DNA of 64,000 nucleotides from the sequence record MZ234015.1. One strand, written 5' to 3'. Positions 9,813 to 35,196 of this stretch are shown piece by piece (the first letter of the stretch is position 1; each line of letters starts with the position of its first letter). Source of the DNA: Escherichia phage vB_EcoP-101114BS3. The notes under the pieces are model-generated. The model was not told the origin of the DNA and did no database searches. It saw only the letters and a list, made by a program, of their open reading frames with translations. Both the position numbers and the translations under genes were made by a program.

Positions 9813-10661
9813 TTATTCCCAAGTTTTATCTAACCATGACCAATCAAAGAGGTCACCTTCAGCTTGTCCAACGAAGAGCAATCGAGCGTTTTCTAACATC
9901 TTATCTTCTGCTTCTTCCTCGAACCTCTTATAGTATTCCATTCGTATAATATGATAAAGAGTCCACTTATCGAATACCTTCTCAATAAGTTTGATTGCAG
10001 CCTTGCTACCAATGCCTTTACGGCGCATAACCAAGTTGCCACCCCACATCATTTCAACCTTCTCACCACAACCGGGAATATTATCTGTATTATCCCCAAT
10101 CAACATTTGGTAGAAGAAATTCTGCCATGCTACTTCTTCTGATACATAATGAGGAGGTACTTCTTTCTGTCTTTCTCCACAAGCCCAACGATAATGCCAT
10201 CCGGGAGTGATTAACAAATCTTTATCACGAGTACAGATAATCGTATTCTTATCTCGTCTCTGTCTTTCAGCTAGGGCATCATCTGCCTCTCTCCCAAAGA
10301 CTTCTACATACTCGTAATTTTCTTTAATATAATCACTAACGTTCTGCCAGTGGTGGGGTCTTTCTCCCGGTGGGCGATTAGCTTTGTAGCCTTGCTGTTT
10401 AGCAATGTTAAATCGAAAGTTACCACCTTCACTGAAGTAAAAGATTGTTTTCTCACAACCTGACCTTGCAATGATTACATCAATTTTGTGTTGAAGTCGT
10501 TCAATCAAGAATCCATAATCAACTGGAACACGACCTGTGTCTAGAAAAGGATGCTCTTGTGTAAGAGCACCGACTTCATATCGCAGAACATCTGCATCCA
10601 CAATTGCTACTTCAGGATAGATTACATCAGACATAGAGTTCTCTCCGTGTCCGTACAACAA
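9813..10661 (-). CDS. 5'-3' exonuclease / flap endonuclease (FEN-like)
   Basis: Acidic PIN-like N-terminal region and H3TH-type GIGSKAAIKLIEK motif. Confidence 0.8.
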   Translation of the reverse strand: MLYGHGENSMSDVIYPEVAIVDADVLRYEVGALTQEHPFLDTGRVPVDYGFLIERLQHKIDVIIARSGCEKTIFYFSEGGNFRFNIAKQQGYKANRPPGERPHHWQNVSDYIKENYEYVEVFGREADDALAERQRRDKNTIICTRDKDLLITPGWHYRWACGERQKEVPPHYVSEEVAWQNFFYQMLIGDNTDNIPGCGEKVEMMWGGNLVMRRKGIGSKAAIKLIEKVFDKWTLYHIIRMEYYKRFEEEAEDKMLENARLLFVGQAEGDLFDWSWLDKTWE

Positions 10662-16581: not shown

Positions 16582-16893
16582 CTACTTCTCCACCACAAAG
16601 AGGTTAACTTCAATGAAAGTTTCGTATTGTGTTGACTCCTGCTTACGGGTGTAGTAGAAATGACGACCTTCTAATGCACCTCCGTACTGAGTGGCACATC
16701 TTTTAACCATCTCTTTTATCACATCTACAACTGATTCGCCTTTCCACGGACGTAACCCCTGAGTTGGGACTTTTGCTGTACAGGTTACTTGTGTGTAACC
16801 TACATCTTGTAGAGATATCTCAAGAATCAGCTTTGCCCAAGCATCAAAATTAAGCTTGGGGTTATATTTAACTTCAGTTTTGATATCAATCAT
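16582..16893 (-). CDS. Hypothetical protein
   Basis: 103-aa ORF immediately downstream of the polymerase gene. Confidence 0.55.
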   Translation of the reverse strand: MIDIKTEVKYNPKLNFDAWAKLILEISLQDVGYTQVTCTAKVPTQGLRPWKGESVVDVIKEMVKRCATQYGGALEGRHFYYTRKQESTQYETFIEVNLFVVEK

Positions 16894-18740
16894 TAGTGAG
16901 TATGATTCCAGTTTAATCCAATCTTACAATCTGATGCAAGAGGACATTCCATCTTGAGGTATTCCCCTGCTTTACGAACACATTCTTCAGTGAGGGTACG
17001 AAGTTTGTTAACATCATCACGATGTACAGTGAACTGTCCTTCATCATGCATGTCAATAACCTTCGCACAACGAACACCATCCCGCTCAATCCATTTATTG
17101 AGGAATAGCATTGCATACTTCATAACAATCGCCCCAGCGCTCTGTAAGAGTGTATTTAAGGCTTTATGGACCATAACCTTTCCAGTTGCATCTCTTCTCA
17201 TTGTAATACGACGTCCATCCACACCGTAGATATATCCACTTTGCGCTTTCTCTGTCATACGTTCAATAAGGATTGCAATACAAGGGTTCTCTGCTAAGAA
17301 TCTTGCTCTCATGATAGCCCCTTCGTCAGAGCCACCACCTACAATACTTCCTAACTTAGCGTCACCTGCCCCATAGTTAAAGGCATAGATAAACGTTTTA
17401 GCATTATCACGAGTAGGAAGGCCAGCAAGTTTTTGGTTATGTGAGTGAATATCTCCTTCTAAAAGAATATCTCTATACATAACAGCAGAAGCTAGACCAC
17501 GTTCAGCTTCTCGTTTCTTAGCCGGGTTGTTTTCTCGCTCTGCTTCAGCGAGCATCTCACGACATTCTTTAATAAGGTAGTGAGCTAGCATCCTCAGCTC
17601 AAGACCAGAGCCATCGTAACCTAAGAAGATTTCACGACCAGCAGGAACATAGAACTTATAGGCACCTACGGGTTTGTCTTTCTTGCCCGGTTTTCCCACT
17701 TCGTAGATAATGTTAGTACCCTTTCGTACGTAACACCCATCAGGGATATGGTTGGTAATGATGAAAGGATGGTTATGACTATCGTCTGAGGAATAGTCAG
17801 ATTGAAAAAGACTGCGGCACTCGTGACCAAACAAACCGCGAGAAGGAATATTAACAACAATGCGATGTTTAAAACGAAATGTCGGAGTAGCGCAGCTATT
17901 AGCTTCGGCGGACAACTTACCATCTTTACGTTCCTTGTCGATAAGCCCGCTAATCAAACCTAGCCTGTGAGCCGCTACAACGCGTCTCTTAAGCAAACTT
18001 CCTACACCCCCTAGCTCACCCCCAAGCCCCTCTTCAAGAGTCTCCTCAAGGTTTGTAGGGGCTGTGGGCCACTTGTTTGATGTAGCCAAAGCTTTTTTGA
18101 TTTCATCAAAGGTTACAGGTTTCTTCCTATTCGGATTAAGACCTAAACCACTGACGTAGGCTTTCATGTAGTTGACAGTGTGATAACGGAAATGTTTATC
18201 CAAAAATCTTCGGATATCAGCATCTATCATCTCCGCTGTCTGTTTCTCTTTAGCATTACCTCGAATCCAAGCAGAATACCATGCAGAGTATGTACCATAC
18301 TTCTTCATAGCTCTACGGATTTCAAATGTATTCCAAGGTTTCTTAGAATAATTCCACTCTGGAGGTATGAAGCCCTCATCCATCAAGGCTTCTTTAATAC
18401 GTGCATCTTTCGATGGGTCGAAGTCTACATACTCAACGCAAGTAAACGCCCCACCGATATCTTCTCTTTTAAGACCAACCCTATCGCAATAGAGCTGAGG
18501 CCACTTCTGTAAAGCACCTGATTTCTTAAAAGGCTTAGCATAAGTTGAACCATCCACCCGCATTTTAGGGAGGAGAGGAATCAGTTCTTTATCAATATTG
18601 ACAATAATCTCTTTGAGAAGGTGAACAAACCACCGAGCGTTTCTTCTGTTGAAGTTGACTCCATGCTTCGCTTGTTTTGAGATTATATCAGCGACTGTCA
18701 TCTCCGTTATGAAAGGTAACTTATCAGGGTTATCCATCAC
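16893..18740 (-). CDS. DNA polymerase, family A (polymerase domain only)
   Basis: Motif A YDGSGLELRMLAH, motif B RDNAKTFIYAFNYGAG, motif C IDMHDEGQF; no 3'-5' exonuclease motifs in this ORF. Confidence 0.9.
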   Translation of the reverse strand: MMDNPDKLPFITEMTVADIISKQAKHGVNFNRRNARWFVHLLKEIIVNIDKELIPLLPKMRVDGSTYAKPFKKSGALQKWPQLYCDRVGLKREDIGGAFTCVEYVDFDPSKDARIKEALMDEGFIPPEWNYSKKPWNTFEIRRAMKKYGTYSAWYSAWIRGNAKEKQTAEMIDADIRRFLDKHFRYHTVNYMKAYVSGLGLNPNRKKPVTFDEIKKALATSNKWPTAPTNLEETLEEGLGGELGGVGSLLKRRVVAAHRLGLISGLIDKERKDGKLSAEANSCATPTFRFKHRIVVNIPSRGLFGHECRSLFQSDYSSDDSHNHPFIITNHIPDGCYVRKGTNIIYEVGKPGKKDKPVGAYKFYVPAGREIFLGYDGSGLELRMLAHYLIKECREMLAEAERENNPAKKREAERGLASAVMYRDILLEGDIHSHNQKLAGLPTRDNAKTFIYAFNYGAGDAKLGSIVGGGSDEGAIMRARFLAENPCIAILIERMTEKAQSGYIYGVDGRRITMRRDATGKVMVHKALNTLLQSAGAIVMKYAMLFLNKWIERDGVRCAKVIDMHDEGQFTVHRDDVNKLRTLTEECVRKAGEYLKMECPLASDCKIGLNWNHTH

Positions 18741-18753
18741 CCACTCCTTATAG

Positions 18754-19107
18754 TTATTGGTATATTAAGTCTGTGAATGCTTGGTTGTCTTCAACAATAT
18801 CTAAAGCTTCATATGAATCAGACAATTCATCCACATAAAAGACTGCTGGAATATCTTCTGCTCGCTGTCTACGAGATTCCCTTTGTTCATTGATATTTCT
18901 TTGAACCTGTGCAAGTTTCATACCCCACACCTGCTCATACAACTCTGGATATTTGTCACTAACCACTACATAATTTCGAGCTGGTTGGTTTCTATTAATC
19001 TTCGCTGTCAACTCAATAAACTGGCGAAACTCTTGAATAGAGAGGTTGTCATGAATATTATCCCATTTGAGAACGCAGTGACGTTCTAGGCATTGAGGTA
19101 CTGGCAT
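18754..19107 (-). CDS. Hypothetical protein
   Basis: 117-aa ORF in operon context. Confidence 0.55.
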   Translation of the reverse strand: MPVPQCLERHCVLKWDNIHDNLSIQEFRQFIELTAKINRNQPARNYVVVSDKYPELYEQVWGMKLAQVQRNINEQRESRRQRAEDIPAVFYVDELSDSYEALDIVEDNQAFTDLIYQ

Positions 19108-19110
19108 AAC

Positions 19111-19380
19111 TTACTCCACTGTCGGGAATGGTTTTAGGTTGTTCATGGCTGTACGAACATCAGCACAGATTTCAGGATCACGATAAGAGAGGAATTTACC
19201 ATCCTTACCACGAATCATTACATTAGTCCGTGATGTTTTATTAGGCAATAAAGAAATCCCTCCAATAAGATGGTTGGTAGGGTGTTGTCCTTGATTAACC
19301 TTGTAGTCATGAGTCTGAGCGTCACCATTAAAGAGATGATCACGAATTTGGATTAAGCTAATCTTCATATTATGCACCAA
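19111..19380 (-). CDS. Hypothetical protein (tandem paralog A)
   Basis: RTNVMIRGKDGKFLSYRD...NLKPFP matches the neighbour's RTNVALRGPDGKFISFRD...NLKPFP. Confidence 0.55.
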   Translation of the reverse strand: MVHNMKISLIQIRDHLFNGDAQTHDYKVNQGQHPTNHLIGGISLLPNKTSRTNVMIRGKDGKFLSYRDPEICADVRTAMNNLKPFPTVE

Positions 19381-19657
19381 AGTTAGGGAAAGGTTTCAGA
19401 TTTTCAATAGACTTAGCAATACGCTTAGGAACAGCCTTATCACGGAAGGAGATGAACTTTCCATCAGGACCACGAAGGGCTACATTAGTACGAGCTGTTG
19501 TTTTGTTAAACTGAATCATCTCAACAGAGCTTGTAACATTTTCTACAGGAAAAGTATAGCTCTCAGTTGTGTTCAGAGAAGGGAGGAAATCAGTTACAGT
19601 GATGTAAGTTACTTTAGACATATTTATTACCTTAGGTTCTATAAAAGAAAAGGCCAC
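19370..19657 (-). CDS. Hypothetical protein (tandem paralog B)
   Basis: See 19111-19380. Confidence 0.55.
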   Translation of the reverse strand: MAFSFIEPKVINMSKVTYITVTDFLPSLNTTESYTFPVENVTSSVEMIQFNKTTARTNVALRGPDGKFISFRDKAVPKRIAKSIENLKPFPNFGA

Positions 19658-19674
19658 CCGAAATGGGTAGCCTT
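19642..19674 (-). terminator. Terminator-like hairpin with U-rich tail
   Basis: 10-bp stem with one mismatch (AAGGCCACCC / GGGTAGCCTT), loop GAAAT, then a minus-sense U-rich run. Confidence 0.4.
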
Positions 19675-19688
19675 ATATCAACTTGAGC

Positions 19689-19973
19689 TTAAAGCTCCTT
19701 TGCGACCGCCTGCTGATTTTCCAGCACGATCTCCACTTTTGCCGCCGTTCGAGCGATTTCGAGAGACTGATTCAACACGTAAGTTACTTGACGCATTAGA
19801 ACCTCCCGACTTGATTGATCGTTTGTGTCCAACATCTTTACCTCGGACAGCAGCTTTTCCATCGCGCTTTTCAACGATGCGACGTGCACGGTGGCGCTGA
19901 GCATCTCCGCTCTTGCTACCAACGCCGGTCTCACCCCTTGCGATTGCAGTTCTTCGTTCTTGTGCATAATCAC
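19689..19973 (-). CDS. Hypothetical helical protein (an alternative-frame ORF 19678-19995 also exists)
   Basis: 94-aa ORF with a balanced helical sequence; the overlapping 105-aa ORF in another frame is Arg/Gly/Ser-biased; local GC looks raised. Confidence 0.4.
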   Translation of the reverse strand: MIMHKNEELQSQGVRPALVARAEMLSATVHVASLKSAMEKLLSEVKMLDTNDQSSREVLMRQVTYVLNQSLEIARTAAKVEIVLENQQAVAKEL

Positions 19974-20039
19974 GTTTCGCCTTATCGGTCATCATAACTC
20001 CTTAATATATCAGTGTACACTAAGGAGTATACATTATGT

Positions 20040-20777
20040 TTATGATTTTTCAGATTCCATTGCTTTAACAATAGCTTTACAGAAACCTGAACGAACAATA
20101 TCATCCGATTCGCCATCTACTAGAGCGGCAAATTCAAATAACTGGTGACGGTAGATGAAATCAGTAGCCCAATCAAGACCGCTCTCACCACGCATGTCGT
20201 GCTGGTTAGTGTCCCCCATGCAGAACATCTGAGAGGTTTCACCAAGACGTGTCATGATTGAATATGCTTCATCAGGAGTAGTGTTCTGGAACTCATCAAC
20301 AATCACGATAGCATCGTTGAACGAGCGACCACGTAGATATTCCAGAGGTACGAACTCAATATTACCATTACCTACTTGACATTCGTAGAAACCTTTACCG
20401 TAGCGCTGAGTAATAACATCAACGATTGGCATTAGGTATGGTTCAAACTTCTCACGAAGCCCACCGGGAAGTAATCCAAGACTATTACCCATACCAACAG
20501 CAGGTCGGCTTAGGATAATCTTCTCAATCTTCCCACTCTTCAGAGCATCAATCACTGTAGAAGTGATTACGAAGGTCTTACCACAACCAGCAGGAGCATC
20601 TGTGAATACAACCTGTTTGGTTTTAATTGCATCAAGCAGCTCACTCTGGAATTGGTTCTGAGGTACTACCGGCTTAGCAAGAACTACTTCTTCAAATTCC
20701 CGCTTTCCTTTCTTGGTGACGAGAGCTTCACGACGTAATTCTCTCCGTGATGCTTTCCGAGATTCTCTACGACTCAT
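20040..20777 (-). CDS. phoH: PhoH-like ATPase
   Basis: Walker A DAPAGCGKTF and PhoH-like layout. Confidence 0.8.
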   Translation of the reverse strand: MSRRESRKASRRELRREALVTKKGKREFEEVVLAKPVVPQNQFQSELLDAIKTKQVVFTDAPAGCGKTFVITSTVIDALKSGKIEKIILSRPAVGMGNSLGLLPGGLREKFEPYLMPIVDVITQRYGKGFYECQVGNGNIEFVPLEYLRGRSFNDAIVIVDEFQNTTPDEAYSIMTRLGETSQMFCMGDTNQHDMRGESGLDWATDFIYRHQLFEFAALVDGESDDIVRSGFCKAIVKAMESEKS

Positions 20778-20955
20778 TTCCTACCTCCGTGTTCTTCATA
20801 TAAGAAGCTACAGGATTTACACTCTGAGCAATGGATACCTATAACCTTAATTTCGACAAACTTCTTATTCTTCCCTTTAGTCGGGGAGCCTTTGGCAAGC
20901 TCCCGTATTACTTTCGAGTCCAAATGGAGAAGAGTTGATTCACATTTAAAACATT

Positions 20956-21276
20956 TCAGATTGATTTGTCCTTATGTAAACGGTATACTTCAGTAGCCAT
21001 ACAAGCTATACGCTCGTCATGTGGGAGATGCATACCAGTAGAGCCGTTCCATCCTTCGAACTCTGAATCAAAGAATCCAATAGGCTCGGGATACATCTCT
21101 TGCAAGGTGGTTAAGTCATCAGCCACTTGTTGCCACTTATCGTCAGACCAGATTGGGTCATCCAACCAATAATACAAATAGGAGTGGATAAGCATCTGTG
21201 TTCTATGTCGTTTAATCACTTCAGCAGGACTGATTTCATTTCCGTTACCAGTCCTAAATGTATTATTGTTGATCAT
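20956..21276 (-). CDS. Hypothetical protein
   Basis: 106-aa ORF in operon. Confidence 0.5.
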   Translation of the reverse strand: MINNNTFRTGNGNEISPAEVIKRHRTQMLIHSYLYYWLDDPIWSDDKWQQVADDLTTLQEMYPEPIGFFDSEFEGWNGSTGMHLPHDERIACMATEVYRLHKDKSI

Positions 21277-21752
21277 TCCAAAACCCTTTCTTCTAAATCA
21301 TAAAAGATTTGATTTGTCCCATTATTCTCAACAAGCACTGTTCCATTATCTAGCAGGGTAGCAACTTGGGAATAAGGAATGTTCTTTAACATCAGAGCAT
21401 TAATGGTCGGCTTGTTTTTGAAGTAAGCGACAGGCTCAACATAGAAGGAAATCCCACGACTTCCTTTAATTGGGGTGCTTGAAGATAGAACCCAAATTGT
21501 TTCTGGCTTGTCTATTTCCTTTTCAACACCAACCTCAACAAGAGAGTCAGCAGCGAAACCTACAGGACGCCTAGAAGAACCAAGCAACCGAACATATCCC
21601 GGTAATTTTGACATATTAGACCAACTACCAGTGTTTTCATTAAACACAGGTCTTACATCACCATATGCCCAAACCAGATTATCATAGTCACGGGCTATGT
21701 ATTTAACCCAATCAGGAACATCATACTCCCTTCCTTCAAAAATAGCTTTCAT
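21273..21752 (-). CDS. Hypothetical protein
   Basis: 159-aa ORF in operon. Confidence 0.55.
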   Translation of the reverse strand: MKAIFEGREYDVPDWVKYIARDYDNLVWAYGDVRPVFNENTGSWSNMSKLPGYVRLLGSSRRPVGFAADSLVEVGVEKEIDKPETIWVLSSSTPIKGSRGISFYVEPVAYFKNKPTINALMLKNIPYSQVATLLDNGTVLVENNGTNQIFYDLEERVLE

Positions 21753-22061
21753 TTAGATAACCTTGTGCTTATAGATGTTAGGGTTGTAGTAATGCAACCA
21801 GTTTATGTATTGTTTCTGTTCAAGGTAGTGTCTGCAATCATGACAAAAAGCATGACCCAAACCTGTTTCCTCGTTCAGCTTGAAGTTGATAAGAAGCTTC
21901 TGCTTTTGACAGAAGCTACATGCTTTAGTGGGCTTCACGTAATGCATCCCATGAGATTGGGAAAAGTTTACGAAGCTCTTCATCAACAGTTGATGCGAAC
22001 ACTCGTACTTCATACTGAGCATGGTCGGACAGTCGCTGACGACATAACTCTGACCAGCCAT
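21753..22061 (-). CDS. Small Cys/His-rich (zinc-finger-like) protein; start probably internal
   Basis: CSFCQK...CHDCRH pairs; the 5' part overlaps the ThyX 3' end, so the true start is likely an internal Met. Confidence 0.4.
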   Translation of the reverse strand: MAGQSYVVSDCPTMLSMKYECSHQLLMKSFVNFSQSHGMHYVKPTKACSFCQKQKLLINFKLNEETGLGHAFCHDCRHYLEQKQYINWLHYYNPNIYKHKVI

Positions 22062-22575
22062 ATAAAGAACCTGTCCACACCCACTCAGTGATCATACCTT
22101 GAGGTAGAACGAATCGGGCTTGCTCTGGAGCAATAAACTTAATCAACTCATCATATGACTCAAGAGCTGTTTCATATGCCCGATTAATCAGAACTAGTGC
22201 AGAGTTTTGCGCTCCCGTGGTGAGGAGATTCCCCGCACCTGCATGGAGGTCCGAAGGTCTTTCAAAAATCTCTTTAGGGATGAAGAGTTCAACTGCTCCA
22301 TCTTTATACCGCCGGGACATTTCGTTCCACGAGAATCCAACTTGATGCTTGCCCAGCTGTCTCGCAATTGCGATTGGCGCTTTGCATCGGAAGCTAATTG
22401 TCGGATGGCGGAATGGTGTGACATGCTTTTCTCTGGCAAGGAACTTGATAAGGCGTTCATCTCGTTCATTTAACTCTCCTTCACGAGTAACCCCAAAGGA
22501 AACTCGAGCTGCATTAACAACAGATTTATCAGAACCCATTGCTTCAATTAGTGTTGCTTGTAATTGTTCGTTCAT
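21925..22575 (-). CDS. thyX: Flavin-dependent thymidylate synthase (ThyX)
   Basis: ThyX-like signature (FRHPTISF ... SWNEMSRRY). Confidence 0.8.
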   Translation of the reverse strand: MNEQLQATLIEAMGSDKSVVNAARVSFGVTREGELNERDERLIKFLAREKHVTPFRHPTISFRCKAPIAIARQLGKHQVGFSWNEMSRRYKDGAVELFIPKEIFERPSDLHAGAGNLLTTGAQNSALVLINRAYETALESYDELIKFIAPEQARFVLPQGMITEWVWTGSLYGWSELCRQRLSDHAQYEVRVFASTVDEELRKLFPISWDALREAH

Positions 22576-22589
22576 CCTTGAATTCTTCC

Positions 22590-22805
22590 TTAGTAATGAA
22601 TCTTTTTATAAATCAGGTTGCTTCCACTTTCTGTTTCAATCCCTTTCTGGATTGTAATCTTAGAAGCACCGGTATTAGCAATTTTTAAAGCTCGTTTAAA
22701 GCGGCGAGCCTCTCTCCGTGTTGTGTATGAGGAGAAGCTAGGGATTGTACTATCAAAATTAAACCACTTAACTACCCAAAAAGTAATCCAAGGTTTCTTT
22801 TCCAT
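22590..22805 (-). CDS. Small basic protein, paralog family A (1 of 3)
   Basis: Shares W.V..W...T.QEAR..K...KI.I.K...Y pattern with 24670-24885 and 24885-25097. Confidence 0.5.
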   Translation of the reverse strand: MEKKPWITFWVVKWFNFDSTIPSFSSYTTRREARRFKRALKIANTGASKITIQKGIETESGSNLIYKKIHY

Positions 22806-22806
22806 A

Positions 22807-23082
22807 TTAAATACCTTTCAGAGCTGTATCTAAAAACGCACGGAGGTTTGATTCAGTTTGCATACCGGACAAGCTGTAGTGAGCACCACTGTTCATGTTA
22901 GGAACCACAAAGGCTGGGATACTGCGAACACCATATTCAATGGCTCGCTCTCGACCATTACCTTCAGAGATATTTACTTCTTCAACTTCTACGTTGTAAT
23001 CAGCTACAACTTTCTTAAACACAGGAGCCATAGCTGCACACGGAGCACAGGAATTACTATAAAACTTAATTACTTTACTCAT
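22807..23082 (-). CDS. Thioredoxin-like protein
   Basis: CAPC active-site motif (CxxC); ATG at 23082 preceded by AAGGA. Confidence 0.7.
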   Translation of the reverse strand: MSKVIKFYSNSCAPCAAMAPVFKKVVADYNVEVEEVNISEGNGRERAIEYGVRSIPAFVVPNMNSGAHYSLSGMQTESNLRAFLDTALKGI

Positions 23083-23272
23083 TTTATTCCTTGTTAATAA
23101 ACAGATTGATATGACGTTGGGTAGCAGGAACAACAATAAAAGATTTATACTGACCTTTTGCTAAGTCATGAGCAATCTTCTTTGTCTGACTAAGACCCAT
23201 TACACAGCCACTAACAATAATAGCATGTGCTTGTAGCTCTTCAGGTAGGTTTAGTTTCACTCTTTGGGTTCC

Positions 23273-23458
23273 TTATAGCATACAAAGAATAATAACAAGA
23301 GGTAGTGTTATAGCAAAATGTACCAGAACAACACTACCTAGCTTGATAGCTTTAACATCCTCTTCTGCTGGGTTTTCTTTAATTGCTAAATTTCGAGCTT
23401 TATATATAACAGTACCAACTATTAACGACCACACGGCCCACACAATCAGTGAAATCAT
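23273..23458 (-). CDS. Small two-TM membrane protein (tandem paralog)
   Basis: Shares VWSVW...KENP...IK.GS pattern with 23468-23689. Confidence 0.5.
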   Translation of the reverse strand: MISLIVWAVWSLIVGTVIYKARNLAIKENPAEEDVKAIKLGSVVLVHFAITLPLVIILCML

Positions 23459-23467
23459 ATCAAACCC

Positions 23468-23689
23468 TTATGCAGTCAACAGGTGGAGAAGGAAAGGAAT
23501 GACAACAGAGAAGACTACCAGAGCAATGCTGCCATGTTTAATGGGTTTAGCGTCATTCGGGTTCTCTTTAAGCATCTGTTTCTGAGCTACATAAACGATA
23601 CCGCCAACAAAAATTGCCCATACAGACCATACGATTGCTGAAAACATACTCATATCCTTATAAAGAAGTTCGCCCCACCTCTTGAACAA
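23468..23689 (-). CDS. Small two-TM membrane protein (tandem paralog)
   Basis: See 23273-23458. Confidence 0.5.
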   Translation of the reverse strand: MFKRWGELLYKDMSMFSAIVWSVWAIFVGGIVYVAQKQMLKENPNDAKPIKHGSIALVVFSVVIPFLLHLLTA

Positions 23690-23710
23690 AGAGACAGGGC
23701 GGAGGTTTGA

Positions 23711-24286
23711 TTAGTAAGACACATCACCACTGGAGTGGGACATGTTGCTCTTGACGAAGTAACAGAACTTGCCAAGACCTTCATTAATTTCTTGAAGCAT
23801 ACTCTGGTCCACTGGATAGGTGCACAAGTCTGAATCAAACTCATCCATCTTCTCAATGATACACATAAGAGTCATGCACATGTCGGAAAGCATACCGTCC
23901 ATGTCAAGATCAGCGTTACCTTCTCGGAACCAAGCATGACCTAAATAATTACTAGCAGTAGCATCCACTTTAACACAATGAAAGCGCATACGCTCTGCTA
24001 TTCGGTCGCCTGCCTCACGAGCATAATCTTCTAGTTCATCGAACATACCATGAACACCTTGGAAACCAGCTCCAGAGACGTTCCAGTGGTAGTTCTTTGC
24101 TTTGATGTGTAGAAGTTCAAGGTTAGCTTGCACACCACACAAGATGTGTTCTAAGCTGTTACCGCTAATCAGTTTATTCATTCCCTCAAGACGAGAGATA
24201 GAAGAGTCAGTAGCAGAGAATGGGTTGCTAGAACCCACTCGTGTTAGTTCTGGTAAGTCGAAGACATTATTATGCATTAGGTGCAT
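23711..24286 (-). CDS. Dps/ferritin-like protein
   Basis: YHWNVSGAGFQGVHGMFDELEDY...IAERM resembles the Dps ferroxidase-site region. Confidence 0.55.
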   Translation of the reverse strand: MHLMHNNVFDLPELTRVGSSNPFSATDSSISRLEGMNKLISGNSLEHILCGVQANLELLHIKAKNYHWNVSGAGFQGVHGMFDELEDYAREAGDRIAERMRFHCVKVDATASNYLGHAWFREGNADLDMDGMLSDMCMTLMCIIEKMDEFDSDLCTYPVDQSMLQEINEGLGKFCYFVKSNMSHSSGDVSY

Positions 24287-24617
24287 CCCCTTCTAAGTTA
24301 GTTGAATTAGCTACATTACGAGCAATGTTATCCATGACCTGCTGTGTAATAACAATGCAATTCTGAGGGTCTACTGATTTAGAACGCCCCATCTCAGGGT
24401 CATAGACTTTGACTCGCTTGGCTGTTGAGCCAGTAACTTGCAACACTTTGAGAAGATAGCCTTGGTTTCCAATAGACCATGCAACAACATCACGATTCTT
24501 GATATAACGACCAAGCATGTCACGATGATAGAACTGCTGCATAACTTTAGCTTTGCTAATCTCTTCAGATGGCGGGGCCACTTTACTCAAATCTAACATA
24601 ACTCTCTCCTGTTTCAT
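24270..24617 (-). CDS. Hypothetical protein
   Basis: 115-aa ORF in operon. Confidence 0.5.
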   Translation of the reverse strand: MKQERVMLDLSKVAPPSEEISKAKVMQQFYHRDMLGRYIKNRDVVAWSIGNQGYLLKVLQVTGSTAKRVKVYDPEMGRSKSVDPQNCIVITQQVMDNIARNVANSTNLEGDAPNA

Positions 24618-24669
24618 ACAATATTCTTATACTGTATATACATTTGAGAGTTATCATATCTACTACCAA

Positions 24670-24885
24670 CTAGTAATAAACCTTGCTGGATATGAATCCA
24701 GCACTGTTATGGATATTTTCAATCCAACGATGAATCTCCACCTTTTCAGCGATTCCTAAAGCTTTTGTAGCTTTTATAGTTTTCTTAGCAAGACGAGCCT
24801 CTTGTCTTGTGTTGAATAATTGAATACAATCACCACCAAGAGCTTTGTTAGCCCATTTAGTACGAACTGCCCATAATTTATCCAT
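24670..24885 (-). CDS. Small basic protein, paralog family A (2 of 3)
   Basis: See 22590-22805. Confidence 0.5.
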   Translation of the reverse strand: MDKLWAVRTKWANKALGGDCIQLFNTRQEARLAKKTIKATKALGIAEKVEIHRWIENIHNSAGFISSKVYY

Positions 24886-25097
24886 TAGTAATGTACCTTT
24901 CCGCTGATATAGAAACGACCTGATTTAAAGTCTTGAGCTTTGTGGATAGTGATCTTATTAATTGTGCTTTCACAACTTAATAAGAACTTCTTATGAGCGC
25001 GAGCTTCTTGACGGGTATTCCTAATACCCATTGACTCTGTACCACTGCTCCAGTGAATACGAACTACCCAACGTCTTTTCATTGTTCCAAACTCCAC
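24885..25097 (-). CDS. Small basic protein, paralog family A (3 of 3)
   Basis: See 22590-22805; tandem with the previous copy. Confidence 0.5.
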   Translation of the reverse strand: MEFGTMKRRWVVRIHWSSGTESMGIRNTRQEARAHKKFLLSCESTINKITIHKAQDFKSGRFYISGKVHY

Positions 25098-25288
25098 TAT
25101 CTGTCAACCGATTTAGGGACAAACTGCATTACACAGACCTGACTACGAGGGAGATTTATTTCACAAGCGGCTCTTCTCGTCTCAATCTTAACGCTAGAAT
25201 CTGGACCAACGTTAGATATAAATACTCCCATAGCAAATGCCCCAACTACAAAACCTATAGCTAAGTAAGTAGCTTTTTCTTCTTTCAT
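25097..25288 (-). CDS. Small membrane protein
   Basis: 63-aa ORF with one hydrophobic segment. Confidence 0.4.
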   Translation of the reverse strand: MKEEKATYLAIGFVVGAFAMGVFISNVGPDSSVKIETRRAACEINLPRSQVCVMQFVPKSVDR

Positions 25289-25293
25289 CTTGG

Positions 25294-25827
25294 TTATACA
25301 CCCTTAGATGCAACTACACCATTACTGCCGTTGTATCGACCCTTCACTGCATAAGAGTCATCACCAGCGTGAGAGTGTTCGAACATAACCATTTGACCAA
25401 CACGCATCCCAGCACGAACTCGTAAGCTATGATTATGGGTAACGTTATGAAATTCAAAGGTTAGTTTACTGCTGTTAAACCCTGCATCAGCCCAACCAGC
25501 ATGGAGGTGGTTTAAACCACAACGAGCCATTGAGGAGCGAAGTACAAACAGGCTTGAGATGTTATCTGGAAGGTTAAACTCTTCCATTGAGTGCGCTAAG
25601 AAGAATTGCCCCGGAGTGATAACAATACCATCTTCAGGGATTTTTACTTCTTTCCACTTGAGGTTTTCTTTAGCATCAATGTCAACAATTCCGTCAGCCT
25701 GTTCTTCAACAAGGATAGTATCACCAATACGGATATCCACGCTAGCAGCGTTAACATATTTATGCTCCGCATCTAAAAAGCCATTATCAATAACGCTGTG
25801 TAATTCTTGAGAACCTAAAAGACTCAT
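25294..25827 (-). CDS. dcd: dCTP deaminase family protein
   Basis: FVLRSSMARCGLNHLHAGWADAGFNS...GMRVGQMVMFE matches the dCTP deaminase/dUTPase-fold signature. Confidence 0.75.
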   Translation of the reverse strand: MSLLGSQELHSVIDNGFLDAEHKYVNAASVDIRIGDTILVEEQADGIVDIDAKENLKWKEVKIPEDGIVITPGQFFLAHSMEEFNLPDNISSLFVLRSSMARCGLNHLHAGWADAGFNSSKLTFEFHNVTHNHSLRVRAGMRVGQMVMFEHSHAGDDSYAVKGRYNGSNGVVASKGV

Positions 25828-27287
25828 GAGTTTCTGTTTCCTTGTACAGATGATGCCAAATTATTAATCATGTTACGAGCTGTTTCACGAGATAGTGTAA
25901 CACCTGCTAAGTTGTTATGAAGCTCACCAGATAGCTCACGAGCAGCAGCTCGAAGTTCTGTACCAAGTGTAGTATCGGAGTGAGCCAAACCATTACGACG
26001 ACTATAAGGTCGAGGAGCTTCGTTAGCGTCATTAGCCAATGATGCAAAACCAATATGAGCAGCTTCACGAGACGCTATAGTTGACACTCGATCTTCCGTA
26101 GGGGTTGGCAAATCACCAACTTCTACACGTTCTATATCACCAGCACGTAGACCCTGAACGACTGAGCTTACTGTTTCCCATGAACGACGAGAACGCTGTA
26201 AATCACCCATTGACGGAGAAGAAGCAGGTCGAACAGTTACTCCACCTGTATCATGAGTGACATGCCATGTACGAGTATCCATTCCAGAAGAGCGTGCACT
26301 ACCAAAACTGCCAGTGAAAGTGTCACGAGGTGCCATTGTAGGAGGAACTGCGAATCTTTCCTGTTGCCAAGAATCGCGTCTGTTAGTTCCCGGAGTCCAA
26401 GGCTGCGTGATTGCTTCAGCACCTATAGTGGTTAATCCGCTAGACCATTCTGTCTGTAGGTTAACTTCCTCGTCCAGATAACTACGACCCCTTTCCTGAG
26501 GAATGTTTAATATAGTTTCCATCATCTTCAGGGTATAATGACGACGCTGATTCTGATATAAATTTACACCAGCCATAGGTCCAACTAAATCACTAATCAG
26601 GTGAACTTCTGGCTCACCGAAAGCTCCCATTGCAAGGTGCATATATTCGGTAGAACTGCTATAAACTGCAACAGTTGCTTCAGGCCACTTCTTGTGAACA
26701 TACTTCATTTCACGACCAGATACCACAGGAATGTCACGAGTGTATGACATTGCAAACAAACCTTCGTTTGACACATACATGTCATCAAGAGACATGAACC
26801 CCTGACAGATCATAGGAAAGCGACGGCTTAAAGTATCCATATCCAAAGGTAGATTAATCATCATCTGGATTTTAACTTGATCAATCTCAATTTCCAGAAT
26901 CTCTTGGAAAGTGAAAAGTGCTTCAGCGTAAGTTGTCCCACTAACAGGCTGAACTAGGCGAGATGTAGTTTGAAGCCCTTTACTCTCTGTCCAAGACAAG
27001 AAGTTGTCAAGGAACAGTGCAGCATTCATCACGTTAGCAGGGTTGTTTTCCTGACGGGTGTTCCAACGAAACCCTCCTTGGACTAGGAAGATATCCACAT
27101 CATTCGGAGTTCGGTTCTGGAAGAACGTATCACGGATAGCACCACCTGCAATAACAGGGTAGATACCATCAGGAACTACGTTGTCTCTGATCAGATTGCG
27201 AATCAGATCAAGCCCTACGCTGAGGGCTTCTCCTTCTTGAAGGTTTAATTCAGACAATGGAATCTTAATCATTTCTACATTTTCCAA
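25824..27287 (-). CDS. Nucleotidyltransferase (Pol-beta superfamily; CCA-adding / poly(A)-polymerase-like head) with long low-complexity C-terminus
   Basis: [14 protein letters not shown]...NDVDIFL matches the GGxVRD...DxD head-domain motif. Confidence 0.6.
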
Positions 27288-27823
27288 TTTAGAGATGGGG
27301 GATTCTTATAATCAAATCCAGCCATTTGGCAAAGACACATGTAAACCTTAACTGTCAAGTTAACGTCTTGCTCACAATACGTGAACATGTCTTCAGTGAA
27401 TGCATCCCATGCTTCTTCCTGTTCACCATAATCACCCTTCAGCTCTCCCAGAAATTCGCCCCATTGCTTGAGGCCATGACCGCGAGGGCCATGTCTAGGG
27501 TCGCCTTTGGGGTATTCTGGACTATCACCAATACGGTCAGGCTTGAGATATCTACTCAGGCACAAAGTATCGAAGACGTTAAAGCGAAAAGGTATCACAT
27601 GAGAATAAAACTTAAACAAAGCAGGAAGGTCAAAATCAATAATATTGTGACCTATTACTACATCAGCTTCTTTCAGTTTGTGTAGTGCTTCTTCAATTTG
27701 GTGAGGGCGATACCCCCACCGCTCTCCAGATAATACATCAAATATCCAGATACACCAGACATTCTGAATACCATCATAGAGATTATCACCCTCGATATCA
27801 AACGCATACAGTTTCTTTACCAC
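27275..27823 (-). CDS. 3'-5' proofreading exonuclease (DnaQ-like), encoded separately from the polymerase
   Basis: Exo I FDIEGD, Exo [14 protein letters not shown], Exo III YCEQD motifs in a stand-alone 182-aa ORF. Confidence 0.8.
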
Positions 27824-29607
27824 GGACGTGCCTCCCCTTCCTGTGCAAGTAAGGAAGCTGCATCCTCTCCATTGGTAACGGTAAAAGGATGCTCTTCATC
27901 AACTTCATGATCTTCTCGTTCTACAAGACGACCTGTTTCGTTAATGTATTTGGTATAGCAAACCCCTGTCTGTCCATAGTTACGCTCTTTGAGCAGTCGT
28001 ATGATTGACAAGTTTTTACCTAACCCATCCGCTTGTTTGTTACGTTCAAAACCAATAATACACTGACACCAGCGCATCAATGAACGTGAACCAGTAAACT
28101 GTACTTCTTTAACCTGACCACCTTCTTCGTGAGGTGCACCACCTGCCGGAGCGTTCAAGTGAGATAATACAAAAGCAGTGAAGTCTAATTCCTTACACAT
28201 ACCAGCAAGCTCTGAAGCAATCTTGCTGATTTCTGTGTTTACCTCAGATGGGGTTAAGTGAGATACCAATGCAGTGATGTTATCAAGAATGATAAATTTA
28301 CACTGATTCTCAACTACCCAAAAGCGAATACACTGCTTAATGTCTTCCCACTCGTTCTGCCCAAAGTTGTCATACAAGAAAAACTTATCAGCGTATCGAA
28401 GTGCTTCATCTCGTAGCTGGCTTTCTTCGTACTCAACATCTGGTCGGTGGAATGGAATAGATGCAGATTTACCTGCAATGTTCTTAACAGACATGCCTAC
28501 CTTCTCTTCCAAGAAGAAGCCACCACCATTAAAACCATGCTCAAGGCAAAGCCATGCTACTAGTTCGTGTGCGATTAAGGTTTTACCTGAACCAACACCA
28601 CCGCCGATTGCAACCATCTCTCCCCAACGAATACCAAAGGTCATGTCGTTAAGAGTTTTCCACGGATAAGGAATACCCCATTCCGCTTTCTTCAGAGCAT
28701 CTTCGAGGCAATCAAAAACTGTAACAGCTCCAGCAGGAGATTCCCGCTTAGCTGAATATTTCAGATTGTTGAAAAGCTCTTGACCTCTCCCTGCAAGTAA
28801 CATGTCGTTTGCATCTTTGATTTCCTTTTCTTGTCCGTTATAAGTGAACGTACCTTTTGGAATCCTTGCAAACTTAACATGCGGGTACAGAGAACGACCC
28901 TTAGTTAAAGCAATCTCACCTGCATCATCATTGTCCATGCAGAGTACAATCTCCTCGAAACCATTAATAAAATCACGGTTTCTTGATAATACAGAAGAGA
29001 TTGAACCTGCACCGAACGGAAGAGAGACGCAAGCAGGTTTGATGTTAGTTGCGTTTGTAAACGCGGTAAGTACGTGGAACCCAGACATACAAGAGAGAGG
29101 ATCTTCAAAGATGAAGAGTTTCTTGTTGTATACGTCACCACGTTGTGCTTGAGCCATACCAAACAAGTCGGCTTCTTTCACATTACCTACATAATAGAAC
29201 TTCTTGCTGTCTAGAAGTTTTACTTCATATCCAACAATGTTCCCATCACGTTCACGAGGGAAGAAGTAGCTGTCAGGAGTTTGACCATCTGTTTGGCTTA
29301 AACCGATACGGCATCCATAACGTTCAGATACAGCTTTAGGAATTAAGCGACGAGTCAACTCTCCCTGAGGAAGCTCTAAGCAATCGTCTAAGACTTCTCG
29401 GAGTTCTTCAGGGGACAGCTCTTTCTTTTCATTAGGAGTGGGCGTCGTTCCTTTCTCGAAGATTTCATACGCACCACATCTGTTACATGAACCCCACTCC
29501 TCACCGGACTCTTCATTTCGGAAGAGAATCATGTGATTGCGGGTCTTATCACGACCATGAGAGATACACTCTTTACAGCCTGTGTCTCCCAAAATGATCT
29601 TTGACAT
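27817..29607 (-). CDS. Primase-helicase (T7 gp4-like)
   Basis: N-terminal Cys4 zinc-binding region (CKEC...CNRC), central primase region, C-terminal Walker [11 protein letters not shown]. Confidence 0.85.
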
Positions 29608-29642: not shown

Positions 29643-29849
29643 TTAGTAAAACGATCGTATTTCTTCCCACACATCATCTTGCAAGTTTCTAAAACCCTGC
29701 AAGGTTTGCTTTGTTCTGTGAATAAATTCTTCAGAGTGCTTATCAGGTGTGAGCATACTGACAAACTTTTCATAGCGATTAATCTTCCACCGCATCTTCA
29801 AGTAGTCAGATTCCAGCTTTCTTAACTTCTGCCTGTCAGTTACTGTCAT
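29643..29849 (-). CDS. Hypothetical protein
   Basis: Internal ATG at 29849 preceded by AGGTGAG; the longer ORF-track version (to 29945) overlaps the GGCT-like gene. Confidence 0.4.
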   Translation of the reverse strand: MTVTDRQKLRKLESDYLKMRWKINRYEKFVSMLTPDKHSEEFIHRTKQTLQGFRNLQDDVWEEIRSFY

Positions 29850-30267
29850 CCTTCTCACCTGCCAGATATGCTGTCCAGTCACCAGATTCAACCAGAACAT
29901 CTTGTTCTTCGTCGATGTGATAAATCCACGCTTCCACAGTTTCACCGCTGTCCAATAATACTGGAATCAGTGTACGCTTGTAAAAGGTGTATGGGTTATC
30001 ATTACCACGATGACCTTCCAGACCGTCATACGGACCTTCCAGACCAGCTTGGGTTGTTTCAAAGACTTCTACACGAACAGGCTTACCATTGCTGTCATGC
30101 TCCAAAGATACACTTGGGAAGTATGCTGTGCAATACTGATACAGGTTACAGTTGTTTACTGTCCACCCTTCACCAATAGACACACCACCTGCACGAGCAT
30201 TGATAGCGTGGTTGTGTTGACCTTTACGAAGAGAACCATACGTTGCAACTAATACTTTATCAGACAT
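29836..30267 (-). CDS. Gamma-glutamyl cyclotransferase-like (AIG2/GGCT fold) protein
   Basis: N-terminal VATYGSLRKGQHNH matches the YG[ST]L signature of GGCT-like proteins. Confidence 0.7.
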   Translation of the reverse strand: MSDKVLVATYGSLRKGQHNHAINARAGGVSIGEGWTVNNCNLYQYCTAYFPSVSLEHDSNGKPVRVEVFETTQAGLEGPYDGLEGHRGNDNPYTFYKRTLIPVLLDSGETVEAWIYHIDEEQDVLVESGDWTAYLAGEKDDSN

Positions 30268-30271
30268 TACA

Positions 30272-30469
30272 TTACCTTTTGTTTAAAATTTCTTTTGTAC
30301 AAGAAGTCCCGTTACACACGAGAACTGTTTGAGTTATAGAATCGACAACTGTTACATGGCTGCCGCATTGAGTTATGATTTGACCTCTCCCTGAATCTTT
30401 AGAGATGCATTCATCAGCGGCGATCGCTGACACACTGAATAAGGAGAGGAAAAATAGAATCTTTTTCAT
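30272..30469 (-). CDS. Small secreted Cys-rich protein
   Basis: Signal peptide MKKILFFLSLFSVSAIAA followed by 6 Cys in ~45 residues. Confidence 0.5.
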   Translation of the reverse strand: MKKILFFLSLFSVSAIAADECISKDSGRGQIITQCGSHVTVVDSITQTVLVCNGTSCTKEILNKR

Positions 30470-30475
30470 GGCTGC

Positions 30476-30892
30476 TTACCAATCATGTTGGAAACCAGAA
30501 TATCCAGAGAAGATGATTGATCGGATTGGCTTTTCAGGGAATCCTTCAAAACATCCCTTAATGGCTTTCTTGGTTTCATCAGAAATTGACTCTTTTTCAC
30601 CAAACCAATATTCTTCAAAAATATCAGAGAAGATATAAGTTCGGTATCTTTCCAAGTCATAAAAACCTTCCACTGCACTTGTAACAGCTCTACTAATTAC
30701 ACTTGAAGCTACAGGAAATAAGTCACCGTGTTCCAGAAACAAGCACCAACGATCAAAGAGAGGAATCTCTTCATCTTTCAGAAGACTTTCTAACTCTTCC
30801 TTTGCCTCTTTCTTGTGCTTCTCAAAGAGGTTTTTGGAATACTCTACATCTAAGATACGACTTTTAAACATATCCAGTTTATTATTAACCAT
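30476..30892 (-). CDS. Hypothetical protein
   Basis: 138-aa ORF in the cassette operon. Confidence 0.55.
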   Translation of the reverse strand: MVNNKLDMFKSRILDVEYSKNLFEKHKKEAKEELESLLKDEEIPLFDRWCLFLEHGDLFPVASSVISRAVTSAVEGFYDLERYRTYIFSDIFEEYWFGEKESISDETKKAIKGCFEGFPEKPIRSIIFSGYSGFQHDW

Positions 30893-30949
30893 TTTACAAC
30901 CTCTAGTTAAATTCGAACTAGCCTCCTCTTTCGAAGAGGCTAAAGCAAA

Positions 30950-31135
30950 TTATTCTACTTCGAAGTGTTTGATCACACCAGTCAGTACATCAGATTGGAA
31001 TGTACCCACTAGCTCTGTACCTCGGAAAAAGTTAACACTTGTTCCAAGTGATTCAAAGCGATCTGCTTGAATGTCCAGAGATTGAATATTTCCTTCTGCT
31101 GACATTGTACGAAACATGATTGTGTATTTATTCAC
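30950..31135 (-). CDS. Hypothetical protein
   Basis: 61-aa ORF. Confidence 0.4.
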   Translation of the reverse strand: MNKYTIMFRTMSAEGNIQSLDIQADRFESLGTSVNFFRGTELVGTFQSDVLTGVIKHFEVE

Positions 31136-31374
31136 AGACTCGTTACTCCCTTATCTGCTTGTGCAATTGCGATGATACGCTCAGCACATTCCATTGAATA
31201 CTTATCACCTCGTTTGAGGAAGGTGATGATTGCAGAGAACTGATTACCAATCATTCTCTTATTTGTGATACCAAACTCTTCACAGAGTTGGTTGATAGCT
31301 TTACGAGAGCCTACAATCAGAGGCTCTTTTTCTTCGGTCATTCCACGGCTGATCAAATCTTCGATAGACAACAT
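31132..31374 (-). CDS. Hypothetical protein
   Basis: 80-aa ORF with start/stop overlap to its neighbour. Confidence 0.45.
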   Translation of the reverse strand: MLSIEDLISRGMTEEKEPLIVGSRKAINQLCEEFGITNKRMIGNQFSAIITFLKRGDKYSMECAERIIAIAQADKGVTSL

Positions 31375-31400
31375 TACAAATTCCTTTTTGTTTAATTTAA

Positions 31401-32636
31401 TTACAGAGTTACTGCTACTTCGCTACCTTCAACATTGACAGACTCTAACTTGCGAGGGTTATGAATCTGGACTGGATTGACCGGAACGTTCCAACCACTG
31501 CGGTAGAAGTTACGACCATCACAGAACAAAATGACATTGGCAGACATTGCATTCGGTTGAAGGTTGTTGTGGACGTGACGGATATCTGCAATCCAGTAAC
31601 CACGAGACAAAGTGTAACCAGTAGGTGCATTACGAATAGTTTGAGTATTCATCTGACCTTCTAGCTGCATTTCTTCAGGAACTACATCTACCGAATCAAC
31701 CGGCTGTGCTACTTGTCCTTCCAGTGCAAAGTTTTCATCATCAGCACTTTCAATATCATCCACTAACTCACCGTCTCCATCTTCAATCGGAGTCTGGTAA
31801 ACCACTTTATACTGAGGAGTATAGAGAGGGTTCTGAGCTTTAACAAACTCAAGAATGTTATGACGGTAGGTATCCAGAGTTGTACCAGTCAGGCCCGGTG
31901 CTGTATTAACTTCCAGTACCCACGCTTCTTGACCTTTGGTGATAATATCAACTGCACCGAAATCCAGACCCATTGATTCAACAGCTTTCACTGCATTGAT
32001 CAGAGAGGCGTCATTCGGAGCATCTGTGAAGGAGCTTGAGTAAACCCAGCCAGTGTGGTGATTACGAATATCTTCACGATAGTTAGGGTCTTCGCGATAA
32101 CCATTGCGACGAATCTTCTTCTGAACATAGGTGATTACACCTTTGAACACATGGACACGCCACTCACGACGTGGGCCTTGAATGCCTTTAGTGTACAGTT
32201 CAGCTCGACCAAGACCATCACCCGGTTCTACAACAACAATGCCCGAACCAGAGTGACCAGTCAGCTCATGGCGCTCATACACAATATTACCAGTGTTTGA
32301 CCACTCTTGAGCAGTCTCTTGAACATCTGTGTATTCCACAGTTTTAACACCTGCTTGGTCCATCACGCTGAAAGCACGACGTTTGTTCGCTGCCATATGT
32401 AAGGCTGCGGTACGGTTAAGGACGGTTGCAGAACCAAAGAATGATTCAGGATAGCGACGGTTCCCGTAGTTAACAACCACATCACCTTCACGAGAACGCC
32501 AGCGGCTATTCTCTGAAAGAAGACCCATCACGTTAGCATTGATGCGTTCATCACGGATAGTATCACTGATAGCAGATACTAGAGCGTTAACAGAATCAGA
32601 CGGGCCATACGGAAGAACACGGATACGAGTAGTCAT
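31401..32636 (-). CDS. ATP-grasp ligase (RimK-like)
   Basis: GHSGSGIVVV (ATP-binding loop) and WVLEVNTAPGL motifs. Confidence 0.75.
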   Translation of the reverse strand: MTTRIRVLPYGPSDSVNALVSAISDTIRDERINANVMGLLSENSRWRSREGDVVVNYGNRRYPESFFGSATVLNRTAALHMAANKRRAFSVMDQAGVKTVEYTDVQETAQEWSNTGNIVYERHELTGHSGSGIVVVEPGDGLGRAELYTKGIQGPRREWRVHVFKGVITYVQKKIRRNGYREDPNYREDIRNHHTGWVYSSSFTDAPNDASLINAVKAVESMGLDFGAVDIITKGQEAWVLEVNTAPGLTGTTLDTYRHNILEFVKAQNPLYTPQYKVVYQTPIEDGDGELVDDIESADDENFALEGQVAQPVDSVDVVPEEMQLEGQMNTQTIRNAPTGYTLSRGYWIADIRHVHNNLQPNAMSANVILFCDGRNFYRSGWNVPVNPVQIHNPRKLESVNVEGSEVAVTL

Positions 32637-32638
32637 TT

Positions 32639-32869
32639 TTAGATACCTTTTAGTTTAAGAATTTCGTTACGACAGGATTGAATTTTAGCTTCGATTGCCC
32701 AATACTCAGCGAACATTTCGTCTTCTTGGGCATCGCTTGGAGAGTCGATTAAGTTAAAAGCAAACGGATACAGCTTTCGCTGCTCCGTTACCAGTTGTTG
32801 AAGTCGGAGTTGTTGATACTCCAGCATTGTCAGGTGAGGCTTAGCTCCCTTGCTTGACATGAGGCTCAA
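32639..32869 (-). CDS. Hypothetical protein
   Basis: 76-aa ORF. Confidence 0.45.
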   Translation of the reverse strand: MSLMSSKGAKPHLTMLEYQQLRLQQLVTEQRKLYPFAFNLIDSPSDAQEDEMFAEYWAIEAKIQSCRNEILKLKGI

Positions 32870-33074
32870 CTTTAATCCCCTTCATTTTAACATAGTCAGC
32901 CAACACGTTATTGATAACGGTTGGAAAAGGGATTTCTACTGGAGAGTCAACCAGCTTCCCAATACCTTCTTGCATCCACTTCTGGATTGCTCGGAGGTTA
33001 TCACATCCTGTGCTTGTCATCGGAATACGGCGGGTAGTTACCACGTTATCCAACATCAGTTTACGAACTTCCAT
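32841..33074 (-). CDS. Hypothetical protein
   Basis: 77-aa ORF. Confidence 0.45.
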   Translation of the reverse strand: MEVRKLMLDNVVTTRRIPMTSTGCDNLRAIQKWMQEGIGKLVDSPVEIPFPTVINNVLADYVKMKGIKVEPHVKQGS

Positions 33075-33085
33075 AACTATACCTC

Positions 33086-35089: not shown

Positions 35090-35196
35090 GTTGCCGCCAG
35101 CTAATACGATACCACAAATTTTCTAATCCACCTGAAGGGTAAACCCTTTCATCTAATTAACCTTTAAATGCGCCCTGTATAAGAGCGCCCGTTGTG

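Follow-up and report, generated by a model that had tools for sequence, protein, structure and literature searches.

The 64-kb stretch of Escherichia phage vB_EcoP-101114BS3 analysed here (MZ234015.1; hereafter the window) carries a T7-type family A DNA polymerase in two separate genes, one for a predicted stand-alone 3′-5′ proofreading exonuclease and the other for a predicted polymerase devoid of an exonuclease domain. These are two intact, conserved and collinear halves of a gp5-like enzyme, in which every catalytic residue has been kept. The explanation that we favour, and in which we have considerable confidence, is that a T7-type polymerase gene underwent fission within a phiEco32-like replication module and that its two products would reassemble non-covalently. 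By its gene layout, the window holds the phiEco32/LUZ24-type split PolA, an ordinary trait of these phages that has already been annotated and published for the whole group. An earlier note on this DNA had proposed such a split, with assembly of the two polypeptides in trans, and we examined its claims by comparing families, folds and gene order.

The replication region compared is the 12.7-kb stretch 16893-29607, in which every gene lies on the minus strand. This stretch is 100% identical to Escherichia phage vB_EcoP-101114UKE3 (NC_070982 / MZ234017), an identity that places the window among the phiEco32-like podophages (Suseptimavirus, Gordonclarkvirinae), and it is matched by 98 related phage records. 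The RefSeq annotation cited throughout for window genes is that of NC_070982. The features that carry the argument are as follows.

27817-29607, minus strand: T7 gp4-like primase-helicase (Pfam DnaB_C and Toprim; PHROG 239 at 5.9e-175)
27831-27835, minus strand: GGAGG Shine-Dalgarno sequence within the 3′ end of the helicase gene, read from the sequence, 7 nucleotides (nt) before the exonuclease GTG
27275-27823, minus strand: predicted stand-alone 3′-5′ proofreading exonuclease of the PolA/T7 gp5 type, DEDDy, 182 amino acids (aa) (family, PDB and fold matches)
16893-18737, minus strand: predicted exonuclease-less family A DNA polymerase, 614 aa from its ATG (Pfam, PHROG, PDB, AlphaFold2 (AF2) model and Foldseek)

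The two halves of the polymerase

The open reading frame (ORF) at 27275-27823 barely exceeds the Pfam cut-off for DNA_pol_A_exo1 (PF01612; E-value 3.2e-5, 24.2 bits, cut-off 23.6), and it matches PHROG 38876 (2.6e-67) and PHROG 403 (3.1e-37), both described as 'DNA polymerase exonuclease subunit', as well as part of PHROG 17, the family of full-length polymerases (columns 670-826). T7 gp5 was its only sequence match in the PDB (residues 4-142, 4e-8). The Exo I (DxE), Exo II (Nx(2-4)D) and Exo III (Yx3D) motifs of a DEDDy exonuclease are all present, and in an alignment with 23 stand-alone homologues of 35-80% identity, D9 and E11 (Exo I), H59, N60 and D65 (Exo II), H116, and Y149 and D153 (Exo III) are invariant, among them the catalytic residues D9, E11, D65, Y149 and D153. 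Conservation extends into the C-terminal tail past Exo III, where F170, P175 and P176 are retained in the same homologues.

Fold comparison points the same way. With the AF2 model of the exonuclease (predicted local distance difference test score, pLDDT, 92), the best 27 Foldseek matches were all T7 gp5 chains (3e-10 to 1.6e-7), followed at 5e-5 or worse by a class comprising family B polymerase exonuclease domains, NrnC, diDNase and RNase T; the fold scores of RNase T and NrnC were about five orders of magnitude poorer than that of T7 gp5. An unrelated DEDD nuclease such as an RNase, the competing identity that the earlier note had itself raised, was ruled out, the PDB sequence and fold matches both being specific to T7 gp5. 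By sequence and modelled fold, the product is a complete PolA-type DEDDy 3′-5′ exonuclease of the T7 type.

The polymerase ORF was first called at 16893-18740, from a GTG one codon outside the ATG at 18737; the ATG is probably the true start, since AAGGAG lies 6 nt upstream of it and RefSeq uses it as well. The ORF matches Pfam DNA_pol_A (PF00476; 4.5e-24, 85.5 bits, cut-off 34.3), its best PDB sequence match is T7 gp5 (5e-33), and its AF2 model (pLDDT 91) matches T7 gp5 in Foldseek at 7.5e-27, compared to ~1e-16 for Bst/Klenow-type polymerases. Motif A (consensus D..SG.E; here GYDGSGLELR, with D375 and E380), motif B (R...K...F...YG; R443, K447 and Y451) and motif C (HDE; H564-D565-E566) are all present and do not vary among 56 homologues, in which an N-terminal peptide is conserved too. 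Judged by these motifs and by the right-hand fold of the model, the product of 16893-18737 is a T7-like family A polymerase.

No exonuclease remnant was detected in polymerase residues 1-362 by hhalign with the exonuclease-family profile (probability 0.35%), nor was there a Pfam exonuclease match anywhere in the protein, ruling out a hidden exonuclease in the N-terminus, which is largely helical in the AF2 model. The earlier note had placed Exo I-III in a separate 182-aa ORF, and motifs A, B and C in a polymerase lacking exonuclease motifs; both statements stand.

When the two protein sequences are concatenated, they run collinear with T7 gp5 as well as with the fused JSF11 polymerase from a Vibrio phage. 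The break falls near T7 residue 200, within the interdomain linker, in agreement with the proposed division of one family A polymerase into two polypeptides. Similarly, the polymerase matches columns 837-1233 of PHROG 17, directly after those matched by the exonuclease. Eight natural fused relatives (597-637 aa) show 42-48% identity to the exonuclease-polymerase concatenate and, relative to it, are without only a 15-residue junction stretch and three insertions in the polymerase. These insertions, at residues 133-224 (helical in the AF2 model), 313-370 (beta-strand-rich) and 389-420 (helical), are absent from the eight fused relatives examined and from T7; in the LUZ24 polymerase the alignment continues across all three, although the third is much shorter there.

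T7 gp5 is thus the best sequence and fold match to both halves, with the same catalytic motifs and a position downstream of a gp4-type primase-helicase. It differs in being a single 704-aa chain and in using host thioredoxin, whereas the window phage encodes a thioredoxin of its own; the window polymerase, for its part, has fewer residues where T7 gp5 has its thioredoxin-binding domain, and carries the three insertions in addition.

Since phage polymerase genes often carry mobile elements, we considered whether the halves might be rejoined by a split intein, or whether the split might be a sequencing or annotation artefact or mark a pseudogene. No support for these possibilities was found, and we regard them as scarcely credible. 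The T7 gp5 alignment fully covers the exonuclease and the polymerase N-terminus, leaving no intein-sized extra sequence at either end, and no Pfam intein match was obtained, which excludes protein trans-splicing. Against an artefact or a pseudogene, the split is kept throughout the 98 matching phage records, and dozens of metagenomic clusters show it as well.

Gene order in relatives and the intervening block

In a set of 5.8 billion proteins, all 36 exonuclease homologues were of 105-208 aa and none was fused to a polymerase; 35 measured 163-208 aa, and the remaining one (105 aa) is a probable fragment. Exonuclease-less polymerases of ~490-618 aa fell into more than 100 clusters, including the LUZ24-type 'DNA polymerase part II'. 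Both products have been kept as separate proteins throughout a broad clade of phages. In every genome examined, namely LUZ24, the metagenomic contigs L006 (100 kb) and L007 (44 kb) and Proteus phage Privateer (Grimontviridae), a stand-alone exonuclease co-occurs with an exonuclease-less polymerase on the same strand. All of these share with the window a common gene order, consisting of amidoligase, glutamine amidotransferase (GATase), ATP-grasp, gamma-glutamyl cyclotransferase (GGACT), primase-helicase, exonuclease, a variable block, polymerase and 5′-3′ exonuclease. The first four genes of this series form a cluster at 29836-36297 (minus strand) in the window, upstream of the primase-helicase, the ATP-grasp protein being RimK-like.

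Among known systems, phiEco32 has the same two genes, order and split as the window (gp74 exonuclease and DNA polymerase; Swiss-Prot EXO74_BPE32 and DPOL_BPE32). Throughout the Gordonclarkvirinae/Kuravirus-like phages, to which the window belongs, the split is identical, and differences are confined to which genes lie between the halves; SU7, unlike the window, has extra HNH genes. In LUZ24-like Pseudomonas phages (Bruynoghevirus), the polymerase is encoded as parts I, II and III, with part I corresponding to the exonuclease and overlapping the primase-helicase gene. LUZ24 resembles the window in its downstream exonuclease-less polymerase with insertions, in the amidoligase, GATase, RimK and GGACT genes upstream and in the 5′-3′ exonuclease downstream, but it has 8 small genes (~2.3 kb) between the halves, and its polymerase is further interrupted at motif B by an element carrying an endonuclease gene. 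The LUZ24 exonuclease is ~32% identical to that of the window, and the polymerases share 40-45% identity.

Further interruptions were observed in polymerase genes of this clade. SU7 (L002, 2157-2763) contains a clean 607-bp insertion with an HNH endonuclease ORF between the motif C codons for H564 and D565, a point equivalent to 17046|17045 of the window, whose own gene is uninterrupted; its flanks share 99.3% identity with the window sequence, and no group I intron was found in the interrupted SU7 gene at the Rfam gathering threshold. The distant polymerase of Vp_R1 (P0094) breaks at the same 'MH|' position. In many relatives (P0050-P0053, P0114, P0117, P0123 and P0137), polymerase ORFs of ~450 aa end within motif B (...AKTF|IY..., window residues ~447-451), the place at which LUZ24 part II (L004, 11827-14133) ends as well. 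Because the SU7 and Vp_R1 breaks fall at motif C and the LUZ24-type ends in motif B, these two motifs look, from the sequences, like recurrent insertion sites for mobile elements.

At the junction with the primase-helicase, the exonuclease starts at a GTG (27823-27821), and the helicase stop TAA (27819-27817) lies within the start of the exonuclease gene, giving a 7-nt overlap. The corresponding overlap is 17 nt in LUZ24, 32 nt in L006 and 56 nt in L007, and in Privateer the exonuclease starts 9 nt after the helicase, with the polymerase 5.6 kb downstream. The GGAGG inside the helicase gene suggests that translation of helicase and exonuclease is coupled. One could read the overlap in the window, LUZ24, L006 and L007 as a sign that the exonuclease is chiefly a partner of the primase-helicase, synthesised in step with it through such coupling. 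We consider this very improbable, given that helicase-then-polymerase is the ancestral T7 gene order, so that the adjacency of exonuclease and helicase is explained by inheritance; moreover, we are aware of no such contact between an exonuclease and a helicase.

The exonuclease and polymerase genes are separated by 8,537 bp (18738-27274, minus strand), for which RefSeq annotates 22 coding sequences. The earlier note, which had described the exonuclease ORF as adjoining the primase-helicase gene and lying ~8.5 kb from the polymerase gene, was accurate on both counts and in naming dCTP deaminase, ThyX and PhoH among the intervening genes; its figure of 'nine or more' genes is correct as a lower bound but low. 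Selected features of the block, together with the 5′-3′ exonuclease gene downstream of the polymerase, are given below.

25824-27272, minus strand: 482-aa 'nucleotidyltransferase' (PHROG 12715 at 2e-165)
25294-25827, minus strand: dCTP deaminase
23711-24286, minus strand: ferritin/Dps-like protein, RefSeq gp069 (Pfam Ferritin-like 7.3e-8; PHROG 3636 'DNA binding protein' 1e-52)
22807-23082, minus strand: phage thioredoxin with a CAPC motif (Pfam Thioredoxin 3.9e-12)
21925-22575, minus strand: ThyX
20040-20777, minus strand: PhoH
19650-19674, minus strand: terminator-like hairpin of 10 pairs followed by a T run (consensus scan only)
9813-10661, minus strand: separate 5′-3′ exonuclease, as T7 gene 6 (PHROG 107 'exonuclease' 4e-61; Pfam 5_3_exonuc_N weak, 2.7e-6, below cut-off)

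The 482-aa 'nucleotidyltransferase', encoded directly after the exonuclease gene, matched nothing in Pfam or among PDB sequences. It does not occur at the matching position in LUZ24, L007 or Privateer, and was rejected as a third polymerase component on the ground that it is not a conserved partner. The RefSeq label 'integrase' on gp069, a coding sequence at 23711-24277, is probably wrong, judging from the family matches listed above; SU7 and Privateer call the equivalent gene DNA-binding or Dps-like.

Elsewhere in the window, a single tRNA-Arg (anticodon TCT) lies at 43941-44016 (minus strand). Position 1 of the window corresponds to position 21548 of the 75,747-bp linear NC_070982 record, and the 64-kb window overruns the end of that record; compared with NC_070982, the window has to be either a nearly identical genome or the same sequence in wrapped or permuted form.

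Proposed origin of the split and assembly of the enzyme

In both T7 and JSF11, an intact polymerase gene follows the primase-helicase gene, and because these phages keep that arrangement, fission in place with later growth of the block is the simplest history; we infer this order of events from the sequence comparisons. An ancestral T7-type gene for exonuclease and polymerase, downstream of the primase-helicase, would have split in the interdomain linker. The exonuclease half would have stayed at the ancestral place, overlapping the primase-helicase stop and equipped with its own GGAGG ribosome-binding site, and the polymerase half would have become an independent gene with an AAGGAG-ATG start of its own. 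Genes of nucleotide metabolism and small genes would later have accumulated between the halves, amounting to 22 over 8.5 kb in this phage.

According to this model, the 182-aa exonuclease would bind the 614-aa polymerase non-covalently, restoring a gp5-like proofreading enzyme that would work with the gp4-like primase-helicase and possibly with the phage thioredoxin as its processivity factor. We judge non-covalent association into a proofreading polymerase to be rather likely, the conserved C-terminus of the exonuclease (F170, P175 and P176) and the conserved N-terminus of the polymerase being hints of a retained interface. A precedent for such an arrangement is provided by the E. coli Pol III core, in which the alpha polymerase and the epsilon exonuclease are separate polypeptides joined non-covalently, although this is an analogy only, since that polymerase belongs to family C and has no homology to the window enzyme, and since epsilon is of the DEDDh type, whereas the window exonuclease is DEDDy (Y149).

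T7 gp5 pairs with host thioredoxin, and by analogy the phage thioredoxin may be a candidate processivity subunit of the polymerase, in line with the same hypothesis made for Privateer (PMC7881722). Polymerase residues ~57-105 align with T7 262-337, the position of the thioredoxin-binding domain, in a segment ~19 aa shorter.

Several observations weigh against fission followed by reassembly. The exonuclease is 39% identical to the fused JSF11 polymerase, versus 32% to the LUZ24 exonuclease; as it is slightly closer to JSF11 than to LUZ24, a single ancestral fission is argued from shared gene order and shared insertions. The terminator-like hairpin at 19650-19674 sits between the exonuclease and polymerase genes, which are therefore perhaps not co-transcribed and may, on this sequence evidence, belong to different transcription units; in SU7, a terminator is annotated in the equivalent gap between genes. 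Additionally, no biochemical study of the two-protein enzyme or of binding between its parts was found in the literature searched.

Some of these points would also fit an exonuclease that acts as an autonomous nuclease without stable polymerase binding, either in extrinsic proofreading on released 3′ ends or in recombination or end processing. The distance of 8.5 kb and the terminator-like site between the genes are compatible with this, as is the failure of the literature search to return exonuclease-polymerase interaction data. Furthermore, PolA enzymes have domains able to work on their own, the Klenow polymerase domain reportedly polymerising by itself. Nevertheless, the exonuclease is an orthologue of the gp5 exonuclease domain and not of any free-standing nuclease family, it is always paired with an exonuclease-less polymerase in the genomes examined, and its conserved tail, along with the N-terminal peptide of the polymerase, fits a retained interface. 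We therefore hold an autonomous role to be unlikely and retain fission with non-covalent reassembly as our preferred explanation.

A more elaborate form of reassembly can be offered only tentatively, and we think it rather unlikely. The insertions at 133-224, 313-370 and 389-420 might, together with the C-terminal tail of the exonuclease, form a new docking platform. The holoenzyme would then have three parts, namely the polymerase, an exonuclease able to detach and the phage thioredoxin, and the split would not be neutral. If this were true, proofreading would be adjustable through subunit stoichiometry or the timing of expression.

Prior descriptions and significance

Both genes are named 'DNA polymerase' in RefSeq, the exonuclease gene being gp076, and PHROGs holds families designated 'DNA polymerase exonuclease subunit'; likewise, the Privateer annotation cites the Swiss-Prot entries EXO74_BPE32 and DPOL_BPE32. 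The split was described in 2012, including its occurrence in LUZ24-like phages (PMC3517423), in an article that cites the phiEco32 genome paper (Savalia 2008) for it, and it was described again in 2023 (PMC9965538).

As a T7-type polymerase that was split in nature and has long stayed so, this pair of proteins would provide a convenient system for studying proofreading with an untethered exonuclease, and the mapped break point, the conserved residues and the lineage-specific insertions should aid the design of a biochemical test of the complex.

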